Below, in pieces: positions 1,201-9,302 of a DNA stretch of 9,302 nucleotides (position 1 is the stretch's first letter; the number at the start of each line of letters is the position of its first letter). The notes under the pieces are model-generated. The model was not told the origin of the DNA, did no database searches, and worked only from the letters and a program-made list of their open reading frames with translations. Origin of the DNA: a virus (taxonomy: Duplodnaviria > Heunggongvirae > Uroviricota > Caudoviricetes). The stretch is taken from the IMG/VR virus record IMGVR_UViG_2537561977_000032; one strand, written 5' to 3'. The position numbers and the translations under genes were made by a program.

Positions 1201-1227
1201 AGCCCGCAACATTGCGGGCTTTGTCTT
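1201..1227. terminator. GC-rich hairpin next to the methyltransferase stop; possible intrinsic terminator
   Basis: Stem AGCCCGC(1201-1207) / GCGGGCT(1214-1220) with loop AACATT, followed on the plus strand by TTGTCTT. On the minus strand it lies directly after the methyltransferase TAA (1226-1228) but the downstream tract is pyrimidine-rich rather than a clean U-run. Confidence 0.4.
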
Positions 1228-2017
1228 ATGGTTCGATCGCCGTTTTGAGCCGTTGTGTTGCTACATCAAAATAATGATCACTGGTTTCTATACCAATAAA
1301 TTTTCGCCCTGCTTTCAGTGCAGCCACACCCGTTGTCCCTGACCCCATAAAAGGATCAAGGACTGTTCCGCCACTATTCACAGTCCTGACCAGTTCCGCC
1401 ATTAGTTCTTCTGGTTTTCCGGTCGGGTGCATTTTCTTTGACGGGATAACCGGGAACGTCATGCAGCCGTCGAACGGTCCCGAAGGCGATTTATCTAAAT
1501 GGCCTTTGCTGCCCCAGACGATGTATTCGCACTGATGCCGGAAATACCCGGTATGTGGTGTTCGTGACCCCCTCCCCTTGTTCCACGCAATGATTCCGCG
1601 CCATGTAAAGCCACTGGCCTGAAACGCATCGGTTAAAGCTGGTAGTTGTCGCCAGTCAGTAAATACCAGGGCATAACCGCCCGGCCTGACTGCGCGGTGT
1701 GCCTGTGCCATCCATAATTGTGTCCAGTAAGCCCACGAACGGGCGTCCATGTTTTCACCCGCGAACCCATCAAAGCGGTGAAGGTTCTCGCCGTTCAGAT
1801 ATTTTGCATGGCTGCCCTGGTTGGTGCGTCCGGCCTTGTGTGTCGCACCCGAACTGTAAGGCGGGTCAGTGATTAAGGCATCAATGCTTTCTGGCTCAAT
1901 CAGCGGCAATATTTCCAGCGCATTCCCACGACAGAGCGTGGCATTGTCAGTCTGATAAACCTTAGTGTGTTCCGGTGTATGTGCTGGTTGGTGCTGGATT
2001 GCGATCCCCACGGTCAT
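1226..2017 (-). CDS. DNA amino-methyltransferase (beta-class N6-adenine or N4-cytosine), probably orphan
   Basis: 263 aa ORF with catalytic motif IV DPPY (ALITDPPYSS) near the N-terminus and SAM-binding motif I FxGxG (LDPFMGSGTTG) near the C-terminus, the beta-class order. ATG at 2017 is preceded by GAGGAG with only a 2 nt spacer; GTG at codon 3 is an alternative start. No restriction endonuclease partner is visible in the window. Confidence 0.85.
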   Translation of the reverse strand: MTVGIAIQHQPAHTPEHTKVYQTDNATLCRGNALEILPLIEPESIDALITDPPYSSGATHKAGRTNQGSHAKYLNGENLHRFDGFAGENMDARSWAYWTQLWMAQAHRAVRPGGYALVFTDWRQLPALTDAFQASGFTWRGIIAWNKGRGSRTPHTGYFRHQCEYIVWGSKGHLDKSPSGPFDGCMTFPVIPSKKMHPTGKPEELMAELVRTVNSGGTVLDPFMGSGTTGVAALKAGRKFIGIETSDHYFDVATQRLKTAIEP

Positions 2018-2159
2018 AACTCCTCATGTGTGTGGGGTGCTCGATGGCTCTCGTTATCTGGTTAAGTGTTTTGCAGCGCGGACATTTTATTTCAATGTAG
2101 TGAAATGAGGCGCGGGCAAGTAGTTTGTTGCAATTTTTGCATCGTACATTTTGCGTCAT
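1962..2159 (-). CDS. com: Com-like zinc-finger protein (phage Mu Com family, translational activator)
   Basis: 65 aa from ATG at 2157-2159 with SD AAGAGGT 6 nt upstream; the ORF track starts it three codons earlier at GTG 2168. Sequence MTQNVRCKNCNKLLARASFHYIEIKCPRCK closely parallels Mu Com as I recall it (..IRCKNCNKLLFKADSFDHIEIRCPRCK..), a CxxC..CxxC zinc finger. Its 3' end overlaps the methyltransferase start by 56 nt, the same geometry as Mu com-mom. Confidence 0.8.
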   Translation of the reverse strand: MTQNVRCKNCNKLLARASFHYIEIKCPRCKTLNQITRAIEHPTHMRSYDRGDRNPAPTSTYTGTH

Positions 2160-2194
2160 TTGCGGCACCTCTTGTGTGGTTACTGCTGCCGATA

Positions 2195-2246: not shown

Positions 2247-2297
2247 TTCCTATTGCTTATGAATAGTGTCACCTTCATTTGTGAGGGCAACAAAAAG

Positions 2298-2333
2298 AAA
2301 ACCCGCAGTTTTTACACTGCGGGTTTGTTGTTC
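2298..2333. terminator. Bidirectional rho-independent terminator
   Basis: Perfect 8 bp stem CCCGCAGT(2302-2309) / ACTGCGGG(2316-2323), loop TTTTAC, flanked by an A-run upstream and TTTGTTGTTC downstream on the plus strand. On the minus strand the stem is followed by TTTTCTTTTTGTT, so it should terminate ogr-side transcription before the com promoter region. Confidence 0.7.
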
Positions 2334-2743
2334 ATGTCTGTGAGATAGGGTGCCGTTTCGACCAACCTTAGCAACCGATTGACGGGGGATTACTCCCCCG
2401 TCGCGGTTATCTTACTTATTACATAGTAAGAATGCCGCAATTTCCGTGCCAGCAAACCTGAATCGTAACTCGCACGGTGATGTGTGGAGGATCCAGATTA
2501 TCGCTACCGCAGTTATGCAAAGTAACAGGGTTTTTAACGGAATTTGCGTCATAACGCTTGTCTCCTGAGAGGAGAGGCGCTAACCTTCTACTTGCGAAGG
2601 TAAGAAGTGTTAGGGCCTCGGTTAAACAAAAATGTTTTCCGGGGCCTTTCCACATCTGGCCTTCGGGTATTCCCTCCGACCATCAGCCGAAAGGCACCCG
2701 CGCGTAATCTATCGCTTTTTTGTTACTCCGGCAATTCTGCCTG

Positions 2744-3004
2744 TTAATTCTGAGATAAAGGCAAACTCATCTGATTGTTTCCCCTGTGTGAAGCTGGCAG
2801 ATCATGCCACGGGATACCTTCTGATGAGTGAACGCCGGAGGCGTGTTTTGATGTGAATTTATGGAAAGCTTCCAGTGTTGAGAAGCATACGCCGCATTCC
2901 AGATTGTTACACTGGTAATACTTTTGCCGCACGGTGTTTGAATCATTTTCCGGACGACTGGTGCGGATACGGGCAGATGCGCCACAAAGCGGACAACGGA
3001 ACAT
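2744..3004 (-). CDS. ogr: Ogr/Delta-family zinc-finger late-gene transcription activator
   Basis: 86 aa; ATG at 3002-3004 with SD GGGAGG 5 nt upstream. N-terminus MFRCPLCGASARIRTSR...YYQCNNLECGVCF has the C-x2-C ... C-x4-C zinc-finger pattern and the MF[HR]CPLC start typical of P2 Ogr and its relatives. Lies 42 bp downstream of gpD on the same strand, as in P2. Longer than P2 Ogr (about 72 aa) with a divergent C-terminal tail. Confidence 0.8.
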   Translation of the reverse strand: MFRCPLCGASARIRTSRPENDSNTVRQKYYQCNNLECGVCFSTLEAFHKFTSKHASGVHSSEGIPWHDLPASHRGNNQMSLPLSQN

Positions 3005-3046
3005 AGCGACCTCCCTTAACGTGGTGCTGCCGCTATTCTAAGTTGC

Positions 3047-4154
3047 TCACTCTGTTTCCGCTATCCATTCCGGGATTTTTGCCTCAAGCTCAAGCTGCGT
3101 GGTAAAGCCGCTGTTATCAATGGTGTGCCCGGCTTTTGCAATGATCCAGTCCTGATTATCAATCTCGCTTTTAAATCCTGTTACCGTGCCATGCATTTCG
3201 GGGTAGAGTTCTGCACGTCCACGCGCCAGCGTGATGGAGAATGATGCGGCTCCGCGTTGTAGTTGCTGCCACTTTGCCGCCGCTGCGCGTCTTGCTGCCT
3301 GCTCGTTCTGATAAGTCTTGCGTAACACAAACACATTGCCTTCCGCGCCTTCCATATAATCACCTTCACGGCTGCTGCTTTTCTCCTTTTTGGGTTTTGG
3401 CGGTTTACGGCGTTTCACGCTGACTTTTTCTTTTCCCGTAATTAAGATCAAGCCAGTAGGCGCGTACCCCCGTATACGCCTCGCGGTCAGCAATGCGGAA
3501 CTGATGGCGATCGCCGCTGCTGCGTGTAATGGCGAACGAGGGCAACGGCTGGCCCTGTGCGTTCACGCCACCACCTGGCATGATGAATAACAGATTGCCG
3601 CTTTTTACCGTGGTGATTGCGCCCAGCATTTCCGCCATGCGCGTAAGGAAGGACATGTCGCTTTCTTCGGTCTGGTCGGCGTGGTCGATTTCGATATCCA
3701 TCAGCATTTCGCTGATTTGCGGTTTCAGACCGTACCGGTGAGCGATGGCGGATACCACACGCTCAATGGTCACATCATGCCAGGACACCTCACGTTTAAC
3801 GTTAAATTCATCCCGAAAATCTGCGCTTCTGGCTGAAACAGTCAGCCTGTCCGGCGGTCCTTCGTGAGCGATTTCATCAACAATATAAGTGCCTTTTTCT
3901 GTCAGTGGTTCTCCTTTCCAGCCAATGAGAACCGTCAGGCGCGCGCCCCGTGGTGGTAGCTGCAACTGACCATCTGCATCATCCAGCGTGATGGTGAGCT
4001 GGTCCGCTTCAAATCCCCGGTTGTCGGTCAGTGACAGGCTCATCAGTCGCTCTGTCACGTCGGGCAGTGTTTCACCTTCCGCGAGAATATCAAAATCCGG
4101 CATTTTCACGGGGTCCGGGCCCTGACTGAGCAATTGCATGGTGGTGTCGGTCAT
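3047..4154 (-). pseudogene. D: gpD-like tail protein (phage late control gene D family), reading frame broken by a 1-nt shift in a homopolymer region
   Basis: Two overlapping minus-strand ORFs: N-part from ATG 4152-4154 (SD AGGGAGG upstream) to stop at 3405-3407, and C-part 3493-3047 in the adjacent frame. The C-part (GNVFVLRKTYQNEQAARRAAAAKWQQLQRG...TGFKSEIDNQDWIIAKAGHTIDNSGFTTQLELEAK) matches the conserved gpD C-terminal region from recall. Frames overlap at 3405-3493, where A/T runs (T5 at 3425-3429, T4 at 3431-3434) are the likely shift site. The track's upstream extension to 4286 (MIRQQ...) is not supported. Confidence 0.7.
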
Positions 4155-4311
4155 CTGTTCCCTCCCTGTGCGGCATGGTCGCATGTGCGTGCGGAGGGGG
4201 TTACTGCTTTTTGTTGTCGCCGTGGCGGGAGAACGGCGCAGGGGTGAGATTACGCGCGTGGTGGGTGATGATTGTTGCCGAATCATTTAACGGATACAAG
4301 GGGCTGAAGCT

Positions 4312-5496
4312 ATGAGTGAAACTCGTTTTCATGGTGCCCGTGTTACGGAAAGTACCAACCTGGTAACAGCGATTAATGATGTTGATTCCAGTGTTATCGG
4401 TATCGTGGCAACGGCGGATGATGCGGACGCGGAGCTGTTCCCGCTGAACAAGCCCACACTGCTGACCCGCGTCAATGACGTGCTGGGAAAATGCGGAACA
4501 ACGGGGACGCTTTATCGTGCGCTTAAGGCCATCGCAGACCAGGTGAGCACAAAGGTGATCGTCGTTCGCGTGGCTGAACACAAAGAAGAAGACGGAAAAA
4601 CGCAGGATCAACTGGTTATCGGTGGTTCTGAATCTGACGGCAGCTATACGGGGATGTATGCGCTGCTTGTTGCAGAGCAGGATGAAAGCATCGGATACCG
4701 TCCGCGTATTCTGGCCGCGCCGGAGCTGGACACGGAGGCGGTAACAAAATCCCTGTGCGTGATTGCAGGTAAACTGCGCGCGTTTGTGTATGCCTCATGT
4801 CACGGCTGTAACACGATGGCTGAGGCGATTACCTACCGCCAGAAATTCAACGAACGTGAGGTGATGCTCTTATGGCCGGACTTCATCGCCTGGAACCCGA
4901 AAAGTGGCAAAAACGAAACGTTCCCCGCGCCTGCCTATGCGTGCGGCCTTCGTGCGTACATTGACCATGAGCAGGGCTGGCACAAATCATTGTCCAACGT
5001 TCCGGTTAAAAATGTGCTGGGGATGTCGAGGCATGTGTTCTGGTCGTTGCAGGCCGAAGACAGCGATGCCAACAGCCTCAACAACAAAGAAATCACGACC
5101 ATTATTCGTCGTAACGGGTTCCGCTTCTGGGGCAACCGCACACCGGAAACGAACGCCTACATCTTTGAGGTGTATACCCGAACCGCACAGGTGCTGGCTG
5201 ATTCAATTGTGGAAGCGCAGTTTGAAACCATCGACAGTCCACTGACGCCTGCGAACGTGAAGGATGTTATCAGTGCCATCAGGGCAAAACTGGATTCACT
5301 GGTGACTGCCGGGAAACTGATTGGGGCGTCGTGCTGGTATGACGTGGTGGATAACGGCACCACGGATTTACGTCAGGGGCGCGTGCGTATTCGCTACAAA
5401 TATACGCCCGTTCCGCCACTGGAAGATATGGAGCTTTACCAGACGTTTACTGATGAATTCTTTGGTCCCGCATTTGCGGTGCTGGGAGGTGTCTGA
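4312..5496 (+). CDS. FI: Contractile tail sheath protein (P2 gpFI family)
   Basis: 394 aa, ATG 4312, stop TGA 5494-5496. Long collinear similarity to P2 FI as recalled (DADAE.FPLNKP, RPRILAAPELDT, KLRAF.Y, YRQ.F..RE.M..WPDF.AWN, QGWHK.LSNV, RRNGFRFWGNRT, YTRTAQV, Y.YTPVPPLE). Confidence 0.93.
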   Translation: MSETRFHGARVTESTNLVTAINDVDSSVIGIVATADDADAELFPLNKPTLLTRVNDVLGKCGTTGTLYRALKAIADQVSTKVIVVRVAEHKEEDGKTQDQLVIGGSESDGSYTGMYALLVAEQDESIGYRPRILAAPELDTEAVTKSLCVIAGKLRAFVYASCHGCNTMAEAITYRQKFNEREVMLLWPDFIAWNPKSGKNETFPAPAYACGLRAYIDHEQGWHKSLSNVPVKNVLGMSRHVFWSLQAEDSDANSLNNKEITTIIRRNGFRFWGNRTPETNAYIFEVYTRTAQVLADSIVEAQFETIDSPLTPANVKDVISAIRAKLDSLVTAGKLIGASCWYDVVDNGTTDLRQGRVRIRYKYTPVPPLEDMELYQTFTDEFFGPAFAVLGGV

Positions 5497-6007
5497 TGGC
5501 TGTACCAAAAAATCTTCGTTTTTTACGCTGTTTGTGGATGGTGAAAACGAAGTGGGTAAGGTGACGTCCGTCACTCTGCCTAAACTGACGCGCAAAACCG
5601 ACAGCTACCGGGGTGGTGGCATGATGGGGGCAGTAAGTATTGATCTCGGCCTGGACGACTCCGCGCTTGATGCGAGCTTTGTCATGGGGGGCGCAGTTCG
5701 TGAGTTGTTCCTGAAGTATGGCGGCACGATTGACGGTACGCTGCTGCGTTTTGCGGGTGAATACTACACCGACGCTGAAAGCGACCTGTATGAAGTCGAA
5801 ATGCGCGGACGTGTGACGGAAATTGATATGGGGGAAGCCAAACAGGGTGAGGCCACATCACACACTTACGCCATTAAAAACACCTACTACAAGCTGAGTG
5901 TTAACGATCGCCCGTTGTGGGAGATTGACCTGCTGAACTTCATTTACCGGAAGGACGGCAGGGACATTGTGCCCGATCGCATCCGTTCCGCGCTCGGGCT
6001 TGGCTGA
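5496..6007 (+). CDS. FII: Tail tube protein (P2 gpFII family); needs a -1 shift at 5519-5525 to be read full length
   Basis: ATG 5496-5498 overlaps the FI stop (TGATG) and has a perfect SD GGGAGG 6 nt upstream. Frame 0 gives MAVPKNLRF then stops after 22 codons; the -1 frame continues FTLFVDGENEVGKVTSVTLPKLTRK..SYRGGGM.GA...LGLDD to TGA 6005-6007. The joined product MAVPKNLRFFTLFVDG... fits the P2-type tube N-terminus (MA.P.KL.... LF.DG). The run at 5519-5524 has 6 T where 7 would keep one frame. Confidence 0.8.
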
Positions 6008-6061
6008 TAAGTAATATGCAGGCGGCGCAGTGCGTCGCCTCTGACTGAAAGGAGTTTCCTG

Positions 6062-6370
6062 ATGAAAGAGACGAAAAACATCGATACCGAAAACACGGTA
6101 GTTACTGACACTGTGAAAGAAACCAGTGAGCGTGGCGTAAAACTTACCCAACCAATTGAGCGAGGCGACGAAAAAATCACGTATGTGGAGATCTCCGGGG
6201 CTATTGAGCAGGCTGGTTCTCTGCGAGATTTGTCGCTGTCTGATGTGCTGAATCTGAAAGCGGAATCCATGTTTACGCTGCTGTCACGCGTGACATCACC
6301 GCGACTGGATGAAGTGACGATCAAAAAATGGCATCCCGTGACTTTATTCAGTTATGCGTGGTTGCCGTAA
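6062..6370 (+). CDS. E: Tail assembly chaperone E (P2 gpE family)
   Basis: 102 aa; ATG 6062 with SD AAAGGAG 7 nt upstream; position directly after FII and before the tape-measure gene. Acidic N-terminus and a ..RGDE.IT.V.. motif are consistent with gpE. Stop TAA 6368-6370. Confidence 0.75.
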   Translation: MKETKNIDTENTVVTDTVKETSERGVKLTQPIERGDEKITYVEISGAIEQAGSLRDLSLSDVLNLKAESMFTLLSRVTSPRLDEVTIKKWHPVTLFSYAWLP

Positions 6371-6589
6371 ATTTTTGAGCGGTGCGGACTCTGGCGGGAA
6401 GAACGAACAGGCGCCGGAAGCCTGATCACGGTTGTGTGCTTTGAGCACATAGAAGACTTTGTGGCAGATATTGCCGTTATTTTTAACTGGTCGCCCGCCG
6501 AAATCTTCATGATGACGCCCGGCGAAGTGGTTAGCTGGCGTGAGCGGGCGGCACTTCGCAGCGGGAATGCAGACAATGAAGACTCTTGA
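6371..6589 (+). other. E': E'-like extension ORF overlapping the start of T, but in the same frame as E (not -1)
   Basis: 73 sense codons straight after the E TAA, protein-like (IFERCGLWREERTGAGSLITVVCFEHIEDFVADIAVIFNWSPAEIFMMTPGEVVSWRERAALRSGNADNEDS), ending TGA 6587-6589 inside T. The sequence AAATTTTTG at 6369-6377 resembles the P2 E/E' slippery site TTTTTTG but sits in the +1 frame relative to E. Confidence 0.55.
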
Positions 6590-9302
6590 TATCCGGGTCG
6601 CTTTCAGCGCCGTTGACAGGCTGACCCGGCCTGCCGAAAACGCCCGCCGCCTGATGGGGCAGTTTGGTGACTCCATCCAGCGAACGCAGGGGGCGATCAA
6701 AAATCTCGAGCGTCAGGCGCGTTCATTTGAGCGCGCCCGTGACGCTGTCAGTAAAGCGGATGCGGGCATCGTGAAAGCACGACGCCAGCTTAACGCCCTT
6801 AATCAGTTACAACGCACGGGTACAGTGCTCAGCGAAAAACAACAAAAGCTGATGCAGCAGTTAAGCACCCGGCTTGAACGCCTGAATGAATCGCGCACAC
6901 GGGAAATTCAGAAAATGCGGGAGCTTGGCGGAGAGCTGAAACGCCACGGCATTTCCCTGACAGGCAGCGATAACACCATCCAGCAGGCCATCAGACGCAC
7001 CGGACAATACAACAACCAGCTTGAACGCGAACGGCGGGCGCTTGCGCGTGTAACGCAGGCGCGTGAGCGGTATTCACGCGCGCAGGAAACAGCGGGAAAA
7101 CTGAAAACAGGTGGTGCGCTGGCAACAGGTGCGGCGGCAGCTGGCGGCTATGCTGCCGGGCGTTTTTTGCAGCCCGCTATCGGGTTCGGCAAAGAGATGT
7201 CCCGCGTTCAGGCACTGACGCGAATCGACAAAAACAGCCCGCAGTTTAAGGCGCTGCGTGAGCAGGCGTTAAAACTTGGCTCTGAAACGCAGTTTACCGC
7301 AGGCGATGCCGCCAGTGGACAGGCATTTCTTGCAATGGCTGGCTTCACACCGCAGGCCATTCAGGCTGCGCTTCCCGGCGTGCTGAGCATGGCAACGGCT
7401 GGCGGTATGGATCTTGGCGAGACGGCGGATATTGGCTCAAATATCCTGACGCAGTTCGGCCTCTCTGCTGACCAGATGGACCGGGTTGGCGACACGCTTA
7501 CAGCAGCGTTTACCCGTACCAACACCGACCTTCGCGCACTGGGCGAAACCATGAAATATGCAGGCCCGGTGGCAGGTAAGCTGGGAATATCGCTGGAGCA
7601 GGCCGCTGCGATGGCGGGCGTGCTGGCGAATATGGGTATCAGGGGGAGTGATGCTGGCACAGCGTTGCGTAAAAGCCTTGCCAATCTGTCATCGCCGCCA
7701 AAGGCGGCAGCAGAAGCTCTGAAAGAGCTGGGCGTGTCTGTCTCCGATGCCGGGGGCAAAATGCGCCCGATGGAAGATCTGCTGGCTGACCTTTATAAAG
7801 CCACCCGCAAATACGGGGAGGTTGACCGGGTATCGTTCTTTAAGGACATCGCCGGAGGAGAGGCTTTTACATCGTTTATGGCTCTTGTTGATGCGGCAGG
7901 TAACGGCTCCTTACCCAAACTGAGAAAAGAACTTGAAGGCGCACGCGGTGAGGCTGAACGCACGGCAAAGGTTATGGCCGACAACCTTGACGGCGATCTG
8001 AAATCACTTGGCAGTGCATGGGAAGGGCTTCGTATCCGCATTGCAGATCTGATTGACGGTCCGCTGCGTTCTGTCACGCAGTGGCTCACGCGGATAGTCT
8101 CAAAAGTGACGGCGCTGGCGCAGGCCCATCCGGCACTGACGCGCCAGTTACTGATAGCGGGAGGCGCACTGCTGGCGACAACAGCAACGGTTGGTTCGTT
8201 GTCTCTGGTTATTGGGGTGCTTCACGGGAAGCTGGCCACCTTGCGTCTTGGTTTTGACATTCTTACCCGGTCAATGAATGTCGTCAGGGTGCTGCCTGCG
8301 CTGTGGGGAATGGTGACGGGTTCTGTTTCTTTGCTGGGAGGCGCTATCGGGGCGCTGTTCAGTCCGGTTGGTCTTATCGTGGCTGCGCTTGCCGGAGCTG
8401 CCGTTCTCATCTGGAAATACTGGGATCCCATCAGGGCATTTTTTGCCGGGGTGTTCAACGGGATTATGGAGCGGCTGGCCCCGTTGCGCGAAACCTTTGA
8501 ACGGTTCGGTCCTGTTTTTGATGTCGTGCGCGATGGGATTATTCAGGTCTTTAACTGGTTTAAATCGCTGCTGTCACCGATGGAGTCCAGCAAGGAAACG
8601 CTGGATAAATGCACCAGTGCTGGCGAGATATTCGGTAACGTTCTTGGTGGCGCGTTACAGCTTGTTCTGACGCCTGCAAAAATGTTGCTGGATACGCTGG
8701 CGTGGATACTTGAAAAGCTCGGAGTTCTTCCGGATGAAGCGGAAAGGGCGAGAAAGAAAATCGAAGATGCACAGCGTGCGGCCATTCTTCAGGACAGGGT
8801 TGCTCTGCTTCAGGGGGACCTGGCGAAAATCAATCCGCCGAAGTCTGCGGGAAATGGCACCGGAGGCGATAAACCCAAAGACAACAAACCGCTCACAGAC
8901 AGCAATACCGGCACATTACGCAGGCTCAGCAAAATTGCTGATAACACAGGTAAGCTGGTTGAGGAGACGAAACGTATTGGCCCCGGCGATATTGTCTTTA
9001 AGAACCTGCCCCGCGCACTTGCTGTTCGTGGGGAGTGGCAGGAGCAGAAGATTGCGCAGGTCAGTAAGCCTGCCCCCGCAATTAATATCACACCCGTGGT
9101 CCCGGCTCCGCTGCCTCCGGCGCTGGTCCCTGTTGTTGCGGCCAGCTCCCGCCCGGTGGCGGAGGCCATACGATCGCCAGTAGCATCAGTTCCTGCAACT
9201 TCCCGTAACCGGGAGCCTGTTGCCTCCGGATTTGGCGGTGAAATTCATGTTCATCTGCATAACGTTGTTACGCAGAATCCCCGCGAACTGGCGAAACTGG
9301 TC
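6576..9302 (+). CDS. T: Tail tape measure protein (P2 gpT family), 3'-truncated by the window edge
   Basis: Uninterrupted sense frame from ATG 6576 (alternative in-frame ATG at 6567) to the end of the window, at least 909 codons. Absent from the ORF track because no stop is reached. Coiled-coil-like, Q/R/E/A-rich N-terminal third (MKTLDIRVAFSAVDRLTRPAENARRL...), central G/A-rich hydrophobic segments (LLIAGGALLATTATVGSLSLVIGVL; GAIGALFSPVGLIVAALAGAAVLIW), and position after E/E' are typical of tape-measure proteins. Confidence 0.85.
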   Translation, partial: MKTLDIRVAFSAVDRLTRPAENARRLMGQFGDSIQRTQGAIKNLERQARSFERARDAVSKADAGIVKARRQLNALNQLQRTGTVLSEKQQKLMQQLSTRLERLNESRTREIQKMRELGGELKRHGISLTGSDNTIQQAIRRTGQYNNQLERERRALARVTQARERYSRAQETAGKLKTGGALATGAAAAGGYAAGRFLQPAIGFGKEMSRVQALTRIDKNSPQFKALREQALKLGSETQFTAGDAASGQAFLAMAGFTPQAIQAALPGVLSMATAGGMDLGETADIGSNILTQFGLSADQMDRVGDTLTAAFTRTNTDLRALGETMKYAGPVAGKLGISLEQAAAMAGVLANMGIRGSDAGTALRKSLANLSSPPKAAAEALKELGVSVSDAGGKMRPMEDLLADLYKATRKYGEVDRVSFFKDIAGGEAFTSFMALVDAAGNGSLPKLRKELEGARGEAERTAKVMADNLDGDLKSLGSAWEGLRIRIADLIDGPLRSVTQWLTRIVSKVTALAQAHPALTRQLLIAGGALLATTATVGSLSLVIGVLHGKLATLRLGFDILTRSMNVVRVLPALWGMVTGSVSLLGGAIGALFSPVGLIVAALAGAAVLIWKYWDPIRAFFAGVFNGIMERLAPLRETFERFGPVFDVVRDGIIQVFNWFKSLLSPMESSKETLDKCTSAGEIFGNVLGGALQLVLTPAKMLLDTLAWILEKLGVLPDEAERARKKIEDAQRAAILQDRVALLQGDLAKINPPKSAGNGTGGDKPKDNKPLTDSNTGTLRRLSKIADNTGKLVEETKRIGPGDIVFKNLPRALAVRGEWQEQKIAQVSKPAPAINITPVVPAPLPPALVPVVAASSRPVAEAIRSPVASVPATSRNREPVASGFGGEIHVHLHNVVTQNPRELAKLV

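Follow-up and report, generated by a model that had tools for sequence, protein, structure and literature searches.

The locus considered here raises two questions: why the phage genes D and ogr lie on the strand opposite to FI, FII, E and T, and what the gap between the two sets of genes may do. The window, by which we mean the whole 9,302-nucleotide stretch analysed, is the viral record IMGVR_UViG_2537561977_000032. A first-pass annotation had called the gene order non-canonical and attributed it to an inversion or to recombination between elements or, alternatively, to an organisation in which D and ogr form a unit of their own. At a probability of roughly 85%, the best explanation overall is that this is the normal layout of P88-type phages, together with what we infer to be a bidirectional late promoter region in the gap.

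Genes of the locus and their condition

The genes of the locus, and the hairpin that follows them on one side, are as follows.

2292-2325, minus strand: G+C-rich hairpin and then a T-run (AAACCCGCAGTGTAAAAACTGCGGGTTTTCTTTTT), the likely end of a D-ogr-hok transcription unit
2412-2552, minus strand: hok/gef-family toxin gene downstream of ogr (Pfam HOK_GEF, 33.8 bits), in the same place in the P88 annotation
2744-3004, minus strand: ogr homologue, 86 aa, zinc-finger late-gene activator (match to Pfam PF04606 and reading of the sequence)
3047-4154, minus strand: gene D, tail/baseplate hub, 'late control D' (two fragments matching Phage_GPD), broken in this copy
4312-5496, plus strand: FI, tail sheath, intact, 394 aa (three sheath domains in Pfam)
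5496-6007, plus strand: FII, tail tube (Phage_tube match, 154.6 bits), frame broken
6062-6589, plus strand: E and E', tail assembly chaperone pair, E broken
6576-9302, plus strand: T, tape measure protein (tape-measure family match, 196.4 bits), open to the window end

Coordinates and Pfam identities agree that D-ogr on the minus strand and FI-FII-E-T on the plus strand are separated by a gap of 157 bp (4155-4311). The order is also, as had been said of it, unlike that of P2 and 186, which in common with Fels-2 and a Gegavirus keep FI..U-D-ogr all on one strand. The ogr product matches the Ogr_Delta profile at 52.4 bits (cut-off 26.3, E=5e-14), and its cysteines are arranged as C4-X2-C7-X24-C32-X4-C37. 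All four cysteines of the motif of Ogr/Delta zinc-finger activators, cited as CX2CX22CX4C in PMC3931495, are therefore present, although the long spacer has 24 residues and not 22. The ATG of FII overlaps the stop codon of FI, and no Rfam family matched the window at gathering thresholds.

Gene D had been credited with its own SD-supported start, and the start itself stands, with GGGAGGG at a spacer of 5 nt from the ATG at 4154, but D is not one intact open reading frame in this copy. Beyond residue 240 the frame is shifted by the loss of single nucleotides at two points in A-runs (about 3425-3435); the N-terminal frame meets a stop at 3405-3407, after about 250 residues, and the remainder runs on in another frame. 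Because the gene is split, each fragment scores slightly below the PF05954 cut-off of 30.1 bits (28.4 and 27.4 bits), but the two align to consecutive stretches of the profile (48-207 and 200-304 of 305), and the annotated D of P88 aligns with that of the window over its whole length. A further 1-nt deletion at about 5518 breaks the frame of FII, the loss of one base from A7 at 6322-6328 breaks E, and the T6G slippery run of E/E' is reduced to T5G at 6371-6376.

Sequencing error and decay are the two explanations for these single-base homopolymer deletions in D, FII and E. It is conceivable, if somewhat doubtful, that the element is a decaying, non-functional prophage, with D, FII and E as pseudogenes and a D-ogr/FI layout that is inherited but no longer working. 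The number of deletions (two in D, one in FII and two in E/E') speaks for this, as does the fact that the D deletions recur in none of the 1135 E. coli records that match. Nor is there a blanket homopolymer error, since eight other runs of at least six bases are intact. Against decay, all five deletions lie in or beside homopolymers of 5-7 bases, and errors of long-read sequencing or pyrosequencing typically take this form. Neither FI, T, ogr and hok nor the host genes on the flanks are broken, and EC291, the closest relative, likewise has an annotation with many frameshifted phage genes, as is usual for error-prone assemblies. Given the frameshifts, the D-ogr/FI unit may be non-functional in this particular copy.

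A layout shared by P88-type phages

The window is best explained as the right end of a P88-type (Xuanwuvirus-like, Peduoviridae) prophage beside flk in an E. coli chromosome. Phage P88 has FI ending at 33175 on the minus strand and D starting at 33333 on the plus strand, with the same 157-bp gap; ogr and hok follow, and U-T-E'-E-FII-FI is placed between the invertase gene and D. Positions 2292-9302 of the window align with 35188-28173 of P88 at 95.3% nucleotide identity, a comparison that covers 7 kb in the window out of a genome of about 36 kb. Homology to P88 ends at 2292, and no attachment core common to the P88 attP region and positions 1-2600 of the window was found.

The suggestion that the junction arose by a recent local inversion, by recombination between two elements, or by misassembly of the contig at about 4155-4311 can be given very little credence. 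The gene order does differ from that of P2 and 186, and several frameshifts in one copy could suggest a poor assembly. However, the junction is collinear, with the 157-bp gap kept, in P88 and 12 other phage records (13 in all), and 1108 of 5426 complete E. coli genomes likewise run collinear with the window across it. Sequence composition continues unbroken across it, and the same layout reaches relatives in many genera in which D is only 61-64% identical. Among IMG/VR loci for D, the best 80 (D 64-99% identical) all have FI diverging from D and ogr, and so do 48 of 48 species-representative genome loci whose D shares at least 61% identity with that of P88; the latter span about 20 Enterobacterales genera. 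At all 30 loci where D is about 48-54% identical to P88 D, by comparison, U leads into D. The orientation of FI and D cleanly splits phages of the P2, 186 and Fels-2 types from the P88-type clade, in which D shares at least 61% identity with P88 D. What had been framed as non-canonical is the common arrangement in Xuanwuvirus, Reipivirus and the E. coli genomes just counted, and it was found in every relative above that threshold. It had also been proposed to look beyond T for U and a second copy of D: in relatives U does follow T, and in the collinear EC291 both U and the invertase do so, but a second D copy is absent.

The presence of an invertase suggests another reading, in which the FI..U block is actively invertible by an adjacent Hin/Gin-type enzyme and the orientation in the window represents one of two switch states. 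An invertase gene and an invertible tail-fibre segment do adjoin the block in P88-type phages; Fels-2, however, has an invertase and yet the canonical order. The only two gix-like sites of P88 (23826-23851 and 26897-26922) both flank the fibre segment, and there are none at the borders of its FI..U block. Around that block the only inverted repeats are those of the tail-fibre segment and a terminator hairpin, none of which flank the block, and not one of 128 P88-type loci has it in the opposite orientation. With crossover sites confined to the fibre segment, an active FI..U switch was rejected as highly improbable.

The inversion of FI..U is, rather, an old, clade-wide event. Relative to P2 only this block is inverted, while throughout the P88 clade D and ogr point the same way as the remaining late genes. 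As a result FI and D run outward from the gap of about 150-200 bp that separates their starts. The layout is shown to be fixed, ancient and carried by viable phages, and that it is normal for the known P88-type clade is close to certain. P88 can be induced, and PhiSM, which shows spontaneous release, yields plaques (PMC5285337, PMC6456863). Since the arrangement is already known, being normal for a common prophage group that has been sequenced, named and classified, it has little discovery value. Its practical use is in annotation, where the junction should not be flagged as a misassembly or rearrangement.

A candidate activator site shared by FI and D

The elements proposed to control the two sets of genes are listed below.

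4213-4234 (centre 4223.5), no strand: single Ogr-type dyad GTTGT-N12-AGAAC, predicted shared activator site
4175-4180, minus strand: predicted -10 hexamer of the D promoter, GACCAT, preceded by TGc (comparative; 44-49 bp from the dyad centre)
4267-4272, plus strand: predicted -10 hexamer of the FI promoter, GATGAT (comparative; 44-49 bp from the dyad centre)
3035-3040, minus strand: candidate sigma-70 -10 element TAGAAT of the ogr promoter, inside the 42-bp D-ogr gap

The earlier statement that 4155-4311 contains no exact TGT-N12-ACA is correct but tells little. The annotated PF and PP/PO activator sites of P2 read TGT-N12-CCA, one mismatch away, and the exact motif was dropped as a criterion for an Ogr site since P2's own sites fail it. 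In the window it occurs once (2067-2084), with 2.07 matches expected by chance. The dyad at 4213-4234 has 9 of the 10 bases of the extended palindrome GTTGT-N12-ACAAC, with one mismatch within the core TGT/ACA triplets (TGT-N12-AGA). It is the only match of this kind in the 9302 bp, and a shuffled window would be expected to give 0.275. Among 75 distinct FI|D gap sequences every one has a single clear best match (8-10 of 10) at 80-98 bp from the FI ATG, in many cases a perfect GTTGT-N12-ACAAC; the few secondary matches overlap the best one or lie on the FI start. The P|O gap of P88 itself holds GTTCT-N12-ACAAC.

Across 24 representatives that share less than 85% identity with one another, the peaks of conservation fall on the dyad and on nAnnnT hexamers 44-49 bp from its centre. 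At the exact offset nAnnnT is present in 23/24 on the FI side and in 18/24 on the D side, against a background rate of 2.8%, and on our reading of the printed sequences the remaining hexamers are 1 nt off position. Four canonical phages have the hexamer on the FI side only. Part of the D-side conservation may reflect something else, such as a G+C-rich CGCGCGC block.

A template for this geometry is provided by the divergent PP and PO promoters of P2. The P2 record gives one activator site for both, a dyad at 3061-3082, with transcription starts at 3016 and 3127, each 55.5 bp from its centre. One imperfect palindrome thus lies midway between divergent starts about 111 bp apart, with -10 hexamers 44-49 bp from the centre on each side and no -35 consensus, and the predicted geometry of the FI|D gap matches it. 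Experimental mapping stands behind the P2 starts, which the record annotates, whereas those of the FI|D gap, at about 4168 (D, minus strand) and 4279 (FI, plus strand), are predicted; the genes served also differ, being P/Q and O.. in P2 and FI.. and D-ogr here.

On these grounds it is probable that a single Ogr-type site drives both FI..U and D-ogr. The palindrome would lie about 55 bp upstream of two divergent starts, each with a weak -10 and no -35, in a copy of the PP/PO arrangement. Ogr would initially come from a sigma-70-type promoter of its own within the D-ogr gap, where a TAnAAT element is conserved at the equivalent position across the clade, and its synthesis would later probably be boosted by read-through from the D promoter, because no terminator was seen between D and ogr. 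Against this model stand the mismatch in the core of the dyad, the weakness of the D-side hexamer (GACCAT) and a predicted D leader of only some 13-15 nt. The first-pass annotation's alternative, that D and ogr are their own unit, is the one that the evidence favours.

It is less likely, though worth weighing, that D and ogr are expressed independently of the dyad, with a D promoter that is activator-independent or differently regulated and an Ogr-type site for FI..U only. With the TG one base upstream of it (TGcGACCAT), the D-side hexamer looks like an extended -10, a type of element able to act without an activator, and ogr clearly has a TAnAAT element of its own. On the other hand, the distance from the D-side hexamer to the dyad centre is fixed (44-49 bp, within 1 bp) in 24/24 representatives and is the spacing of the mapped PP and PO starts of P2. 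A consensus sigma-70 scan of 2300-4700 gave no -35/-10 promoter in the FI|D gap, and in P2 and 186 D belongs to the late structural genes.

A broader account is somewhat more likely than not. An ancient inversion of FI..U would have set the palindromic PF activator site beside D, and the clade would then have fixed a second -10 on the opposite side, so that one Ogr site runs two divergent late operons and ogr sits in a positive-feedback unit of its own (D-ogr). Prophages in about 20 Enterobacterales genera, and perhaps tailocin loci in them, would share this rewiring. In the searchable literature we found no description of the D-ogr/FI gene order, of a bidirectional FI/D promoter or of such rewiring. 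The predicted shared activator site would be a modest addition to what is known of late-gene regulation in the P2 family.

Comparison with related phages

The closest systems are the Xuanwuvirus phages P88, PhiR44_2, 500465-2, 520873, 503458, P884B11, Chuche and Citrobacter phage PhiSM, whose gene set, order and orientation equal those of the window. In these U-T-E'-E-FII-FI diverges from D-ogr-hok across the same 157-bp gap and dyad, at 94-97% nucleotide identity over positions 2543-6400 of the window. The window differs from them in its five frameshifting deletions, and from P88 in having, at its right end, a Com and N6-methyltransferase module by flk in place of the last 626 bp of P88.

Klebsiella phage ST16-OXA48phi5.4 (Reipivirus) and prophages of many Enterobacterales genera share with the window the divergent FI | D-ogr layout, a single dyad in the FI|D gap and -10-like hexamers on both sides. 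They differ in a D that is only 61-80% identical and in gaps of about 150-200 bp; their dyad frequently matches GTTGT-N12-ACAAC perfectly, and many have a GGGAGTTCAACTCCC hairpin upstream of ogr that the window does not have.

In P2, 186 and Fels-2 the operon FI-FII-E-E'-T-U-D, followed by ogr (B in 186), consists of genes homologous to those of the window, with D of P2 and P88 being 52% identical. An Ogr-type dyad about 80 bp upstream of FI is common to all, as is the position of ogr, last before the attachment site and with a promoter of its own, which in the window is a predicted one. The difference lies in D, which in P2, 186 and Fels-2 is translated directly after U, with stop and start overlapping or abutting, and has no promoter of its own, whereas in the window FI..U is inverted and D heads a separate unit.

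Gene order in the window and in P88

The genes D and ogr lie opposite to, and divergent from, the FI operon, as the first-pass annotation had observed, and its suggestion that the two may form a unit of their own was also right. Its coordinates and gene calls are correct, since the map below, from an ORF listing and Pfam scans, agrees with them, as does the strong Shine-Dalgarno signal (GGGAGGG) that a 5-nt spacer separates from the D start at 4154. An in-frame ATG at 4286, upstream of this start, is without a Shine-Dalgarno sequence, and a D begun there would run through the promoter region.

Genes of the window (coordinates, strand, identity)
1-996, minus: flk
1226-2017, minus: N6/N4 DNA methyltransferase
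1962-2168, minus: Com-type zinc ribbon
2412-2552, minus: hok-family (hok/gef) toxin ORF, downstream of ogr as in P88
2744-3004, minus: ogr
3047-4154, minus: D, split over two frames
4155-4311, no strand: FI-D gap, 157 bp
4312-5496, plus: FI
5496-6007, plus: FII
6062-6589, plus: E and E'
6576 to window end, plus: T

The arrangement had been called non-canonical. It is, however, already known, being the fixed and ordinary layout of a large described phage clade. A query of window positions 2400-6400 (ogr, D, the gap, FI, FII and part of E) was matched in 1528 of 5426 complete E. coli genomes, and in 1108 of the 5426 a single collinear place covered at least 80% of it. Thirteen phage records matched at 94-97% identity, including P88, Xuanwuvirus P884B11, 500465-2, 520873, 503458, Chuche and PhiR44_2, and Citrobacter phage PhiSM. 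In the P88 record (KP063541), V-W-J-I-H-G on the plus strand are followed by an invertible tail-fibre segment and an invertase; U-T-E'-E-FII-FI come next on the minus strand, ending at 33175, and D begins at 33333 on the plus strand, followed by ogr and hok. The gap is thus 157 bp in P88, equal to that of the window, and positions 2292-9302 align to P88 with 95.3% identity. In EC291, a collinear E. coli strain and the closest relative, U and the invertase come after T, and the second D that might have followed T is absent. The P88-type layout is functional, because P88 can be induced and lyses other E. coli strains, and PhiSM is spontaneously released and forms plaques and lysogens (PMC5285337, PMC6456863). 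Misassembly at the FI-D junction, which had been raised as a possibility, is excluded by the collinear complete E. coli genomes.

This copy carries five single-base deletions relative to both P88 and EC291, all in or beside homopolymers. D lacks one T of a T6 run and one of a T5 run (plus strand, about 3425-3435), FII has lost a base at its beginning (about 5518), E another at an A7 run (6322-6328), and the E/E' slippery run has gone from T6G to T5G (6371-6376). D (by two deletions), FII and E are broken by them. Among 1135 E. coli records that match over the D segment, none shares the D deletions, and eight other runs of at least six bases in the window are intact. The five deletions are either sequencing error or prophage decay.

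Near the start of the window (1226-2168), the Com-type gene overlaps the start of the methyltransferase gene, a pair resembling com-mom of Mu, but with a methyltransferase. The module sits between hok and flk, in place of the last 626 bp of P88, and just 62 of the 5426 complete E. coli genomes have the flk-methyltransferase-Com junction, compared with 1108 for the D-FI junction.

Extent and origin of the layout

IMG/VR was searched with an alignment of the P88 and P2 D proteins (52% identical). In all 80 best-matching loci (D 64-99% identical to P88 D), FI lies directly upstream of D on the other strand, and ogr directly downstream. A second survey, repeating this search on a single genome for each bacterial species, showed the P88-type order in 48 of 48 loci whose D shares 61% or more identity with P88 D (Salmonella, Serratia, Edwardsiella, Erwinia, Pantoea, Enterobacter, Kosakonia, Citrobacter, Pectobacterium, Brenneria, Klebsiella, Providencia, Xenorhabdus, Photorhabdus, Morganella, Hafnia, Yersinia and others), while in 30 loci with D about 48-54% identical, U lies on the same strand immediately upstream of D. 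Among named phages, a Reipivirus (Klebsiella phage ST16-OXA48phi5.4) has the P88-type order, whereas P2, 186, a Gegavirus and Fels-2 have the canonical order, with FI to U, D and ogr on one strand. This clean split along D similarity points to a single old inversion of FI to U, ancestral to one large clade of Enterobacterales P2-like phages. The one-strand arrangement of FI to U and D also occurs in more distant P2-like phages, phiCTX and HP1 among them, which suggests that the canonical order is ancestral.

The possibility that FI to U forms an invertase switch was rejected. The only two crossover sites of P88 are both at the fibre segment, no inverted repeats were found flanking the FI to U block, and no relative among the P88-type loci of the two surveys has the alternative orientation. 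Fels-2 carries the invertase but has the canonical order.

L087 (NZ_JBQPOM010000071.1, a 226-kb contig labelled Vagococcus sp. WN89Y) has a D 99% identical to P88 D, and the presence of such a gene under a Gram-positive label is probably due to assembly contamination or mislabelling. Xenorhabdus and Photorhabdus loci (L114, L115, L121, L123, L124, L126, L128-L130) have the P88-type order, and some may be tailocin loci instead of prophages, since xenorhabdicin tailocin loci have been described with a flanking ogr homologue (PMC13280938).

Predicted promoters of the D-ogr unit and a putative shared activator site

TAGAAT (3035-3040, minus strand), a candidate -10 element of an ogr promoter, lies in the 42-bp gap between D and ogr, some 30 nt before the ogr ATG, and most of the diverse relatives that were examined have TAnAAT at the equivalent position. 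P2 ogr and 186 B likewise have promoters of their own at this position. No terminator was seen between D and ogr, so late transcription from the predicted D promoter should extend through ogr. The likely end of the unit is a hairpin and T-run (2292-2325), past hok; Rfam detected no Sok-type or other RNA family in the whole window at gathering thresholds. In many Klebsiella-type relatives (L032, L034, L039, L046-L077) a hairpin or palindrome, GGGAGTTCAACTCCC, is conserved between the ogr -10 and ATG, some 15-30 nt ahead of ogr. Neither the window nor P88 has it; it may be an operator or form an RNA structure.

The textbook consensus of the Ogr-type dyad is TGT-N12-ACA (cited in PMC3931495), unlike the PF and PP/PO sites of P2, which are TGT-N12-CCA. 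The window gap contains GTTGT-N12-AGAAC at 4213-4234, the only 9/10 match in the window to the extended palindrome GTTGT-N12-ACAAC (0.275 expected per shuffled window). P88 has the same half-sites (GTTCT-N12-ACAAC) in both its P-O and FI-D gaps. In each of 75 distinct FI-D gaps of relatives a single match stands out as the best (8 to 10 of 10), lying 80-98 bp from the FI ATG, and in many of the more distant relatives it is a perfect palindrome; secondary matches are few, and overlap the best match or fall on the FI start. P88 genes hold four more 9/10 matches (10116, 17517, 24010 and 28823), against about one per genome expected by chance, and no clear dyad was found upstream of V or R in P88.

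Across 24 representatives, less than 85% identical to one another and anchored on the dyad centre, gap conservation is mostly low, with three peaks: the dyad itself, GAT(T/G)AT-like hexamers on the FI side (+44 to +49), and TG-n-(A/G)A(C/T)CAT on the D side at equal distance from the centre. An nAnnnT hexamer stands at the exact offset in 23/24 on the FI side and 18/24 on the D side, against a background of 2.8% at other offsets, and by reading of the printed sequences it is 1 nt out in the remainder. By comparison of sequences, the gap most likely holds FI and D promoters with these predicted starts:

Predicted promoters in the gap
4267-4272, plus: -10 GATGAT of predicted FI promoter, start about 4279, leader about 33 nt
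4175-4180, minus: -10 GACCAT of predicted D promoter, start about 4168, leader about 14 nt

The single dyad at 4213-4234 would then be a shared activator site for both promoters. This model is the sole new element of the analysis, and a modest one.

Two further blocks are conserved in the clade gaps (L028-L083): CGTGA (4244-4248), on the FI side and about 20-24 bp away from the dyad centre, and a G+C-rich CGCGCGC block (4185-4195) just ahead of the -10 on the D side. P2 PF shows no obvious counterpart of either. Unlike the P88-type gaps, the four canonical phages have the nAnnnT hexamer on the FI side only. In the P2 reference record a single activator binding site is annotated for both divergent promoters, PP and PO. 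Its best dyad occupies 3061-3082 (P2 coordinates); the mapped starts, 3016 and 3127, are each 55.5 bp from the centre of this dyad, with the -10 hexamers at 44-49 bp.
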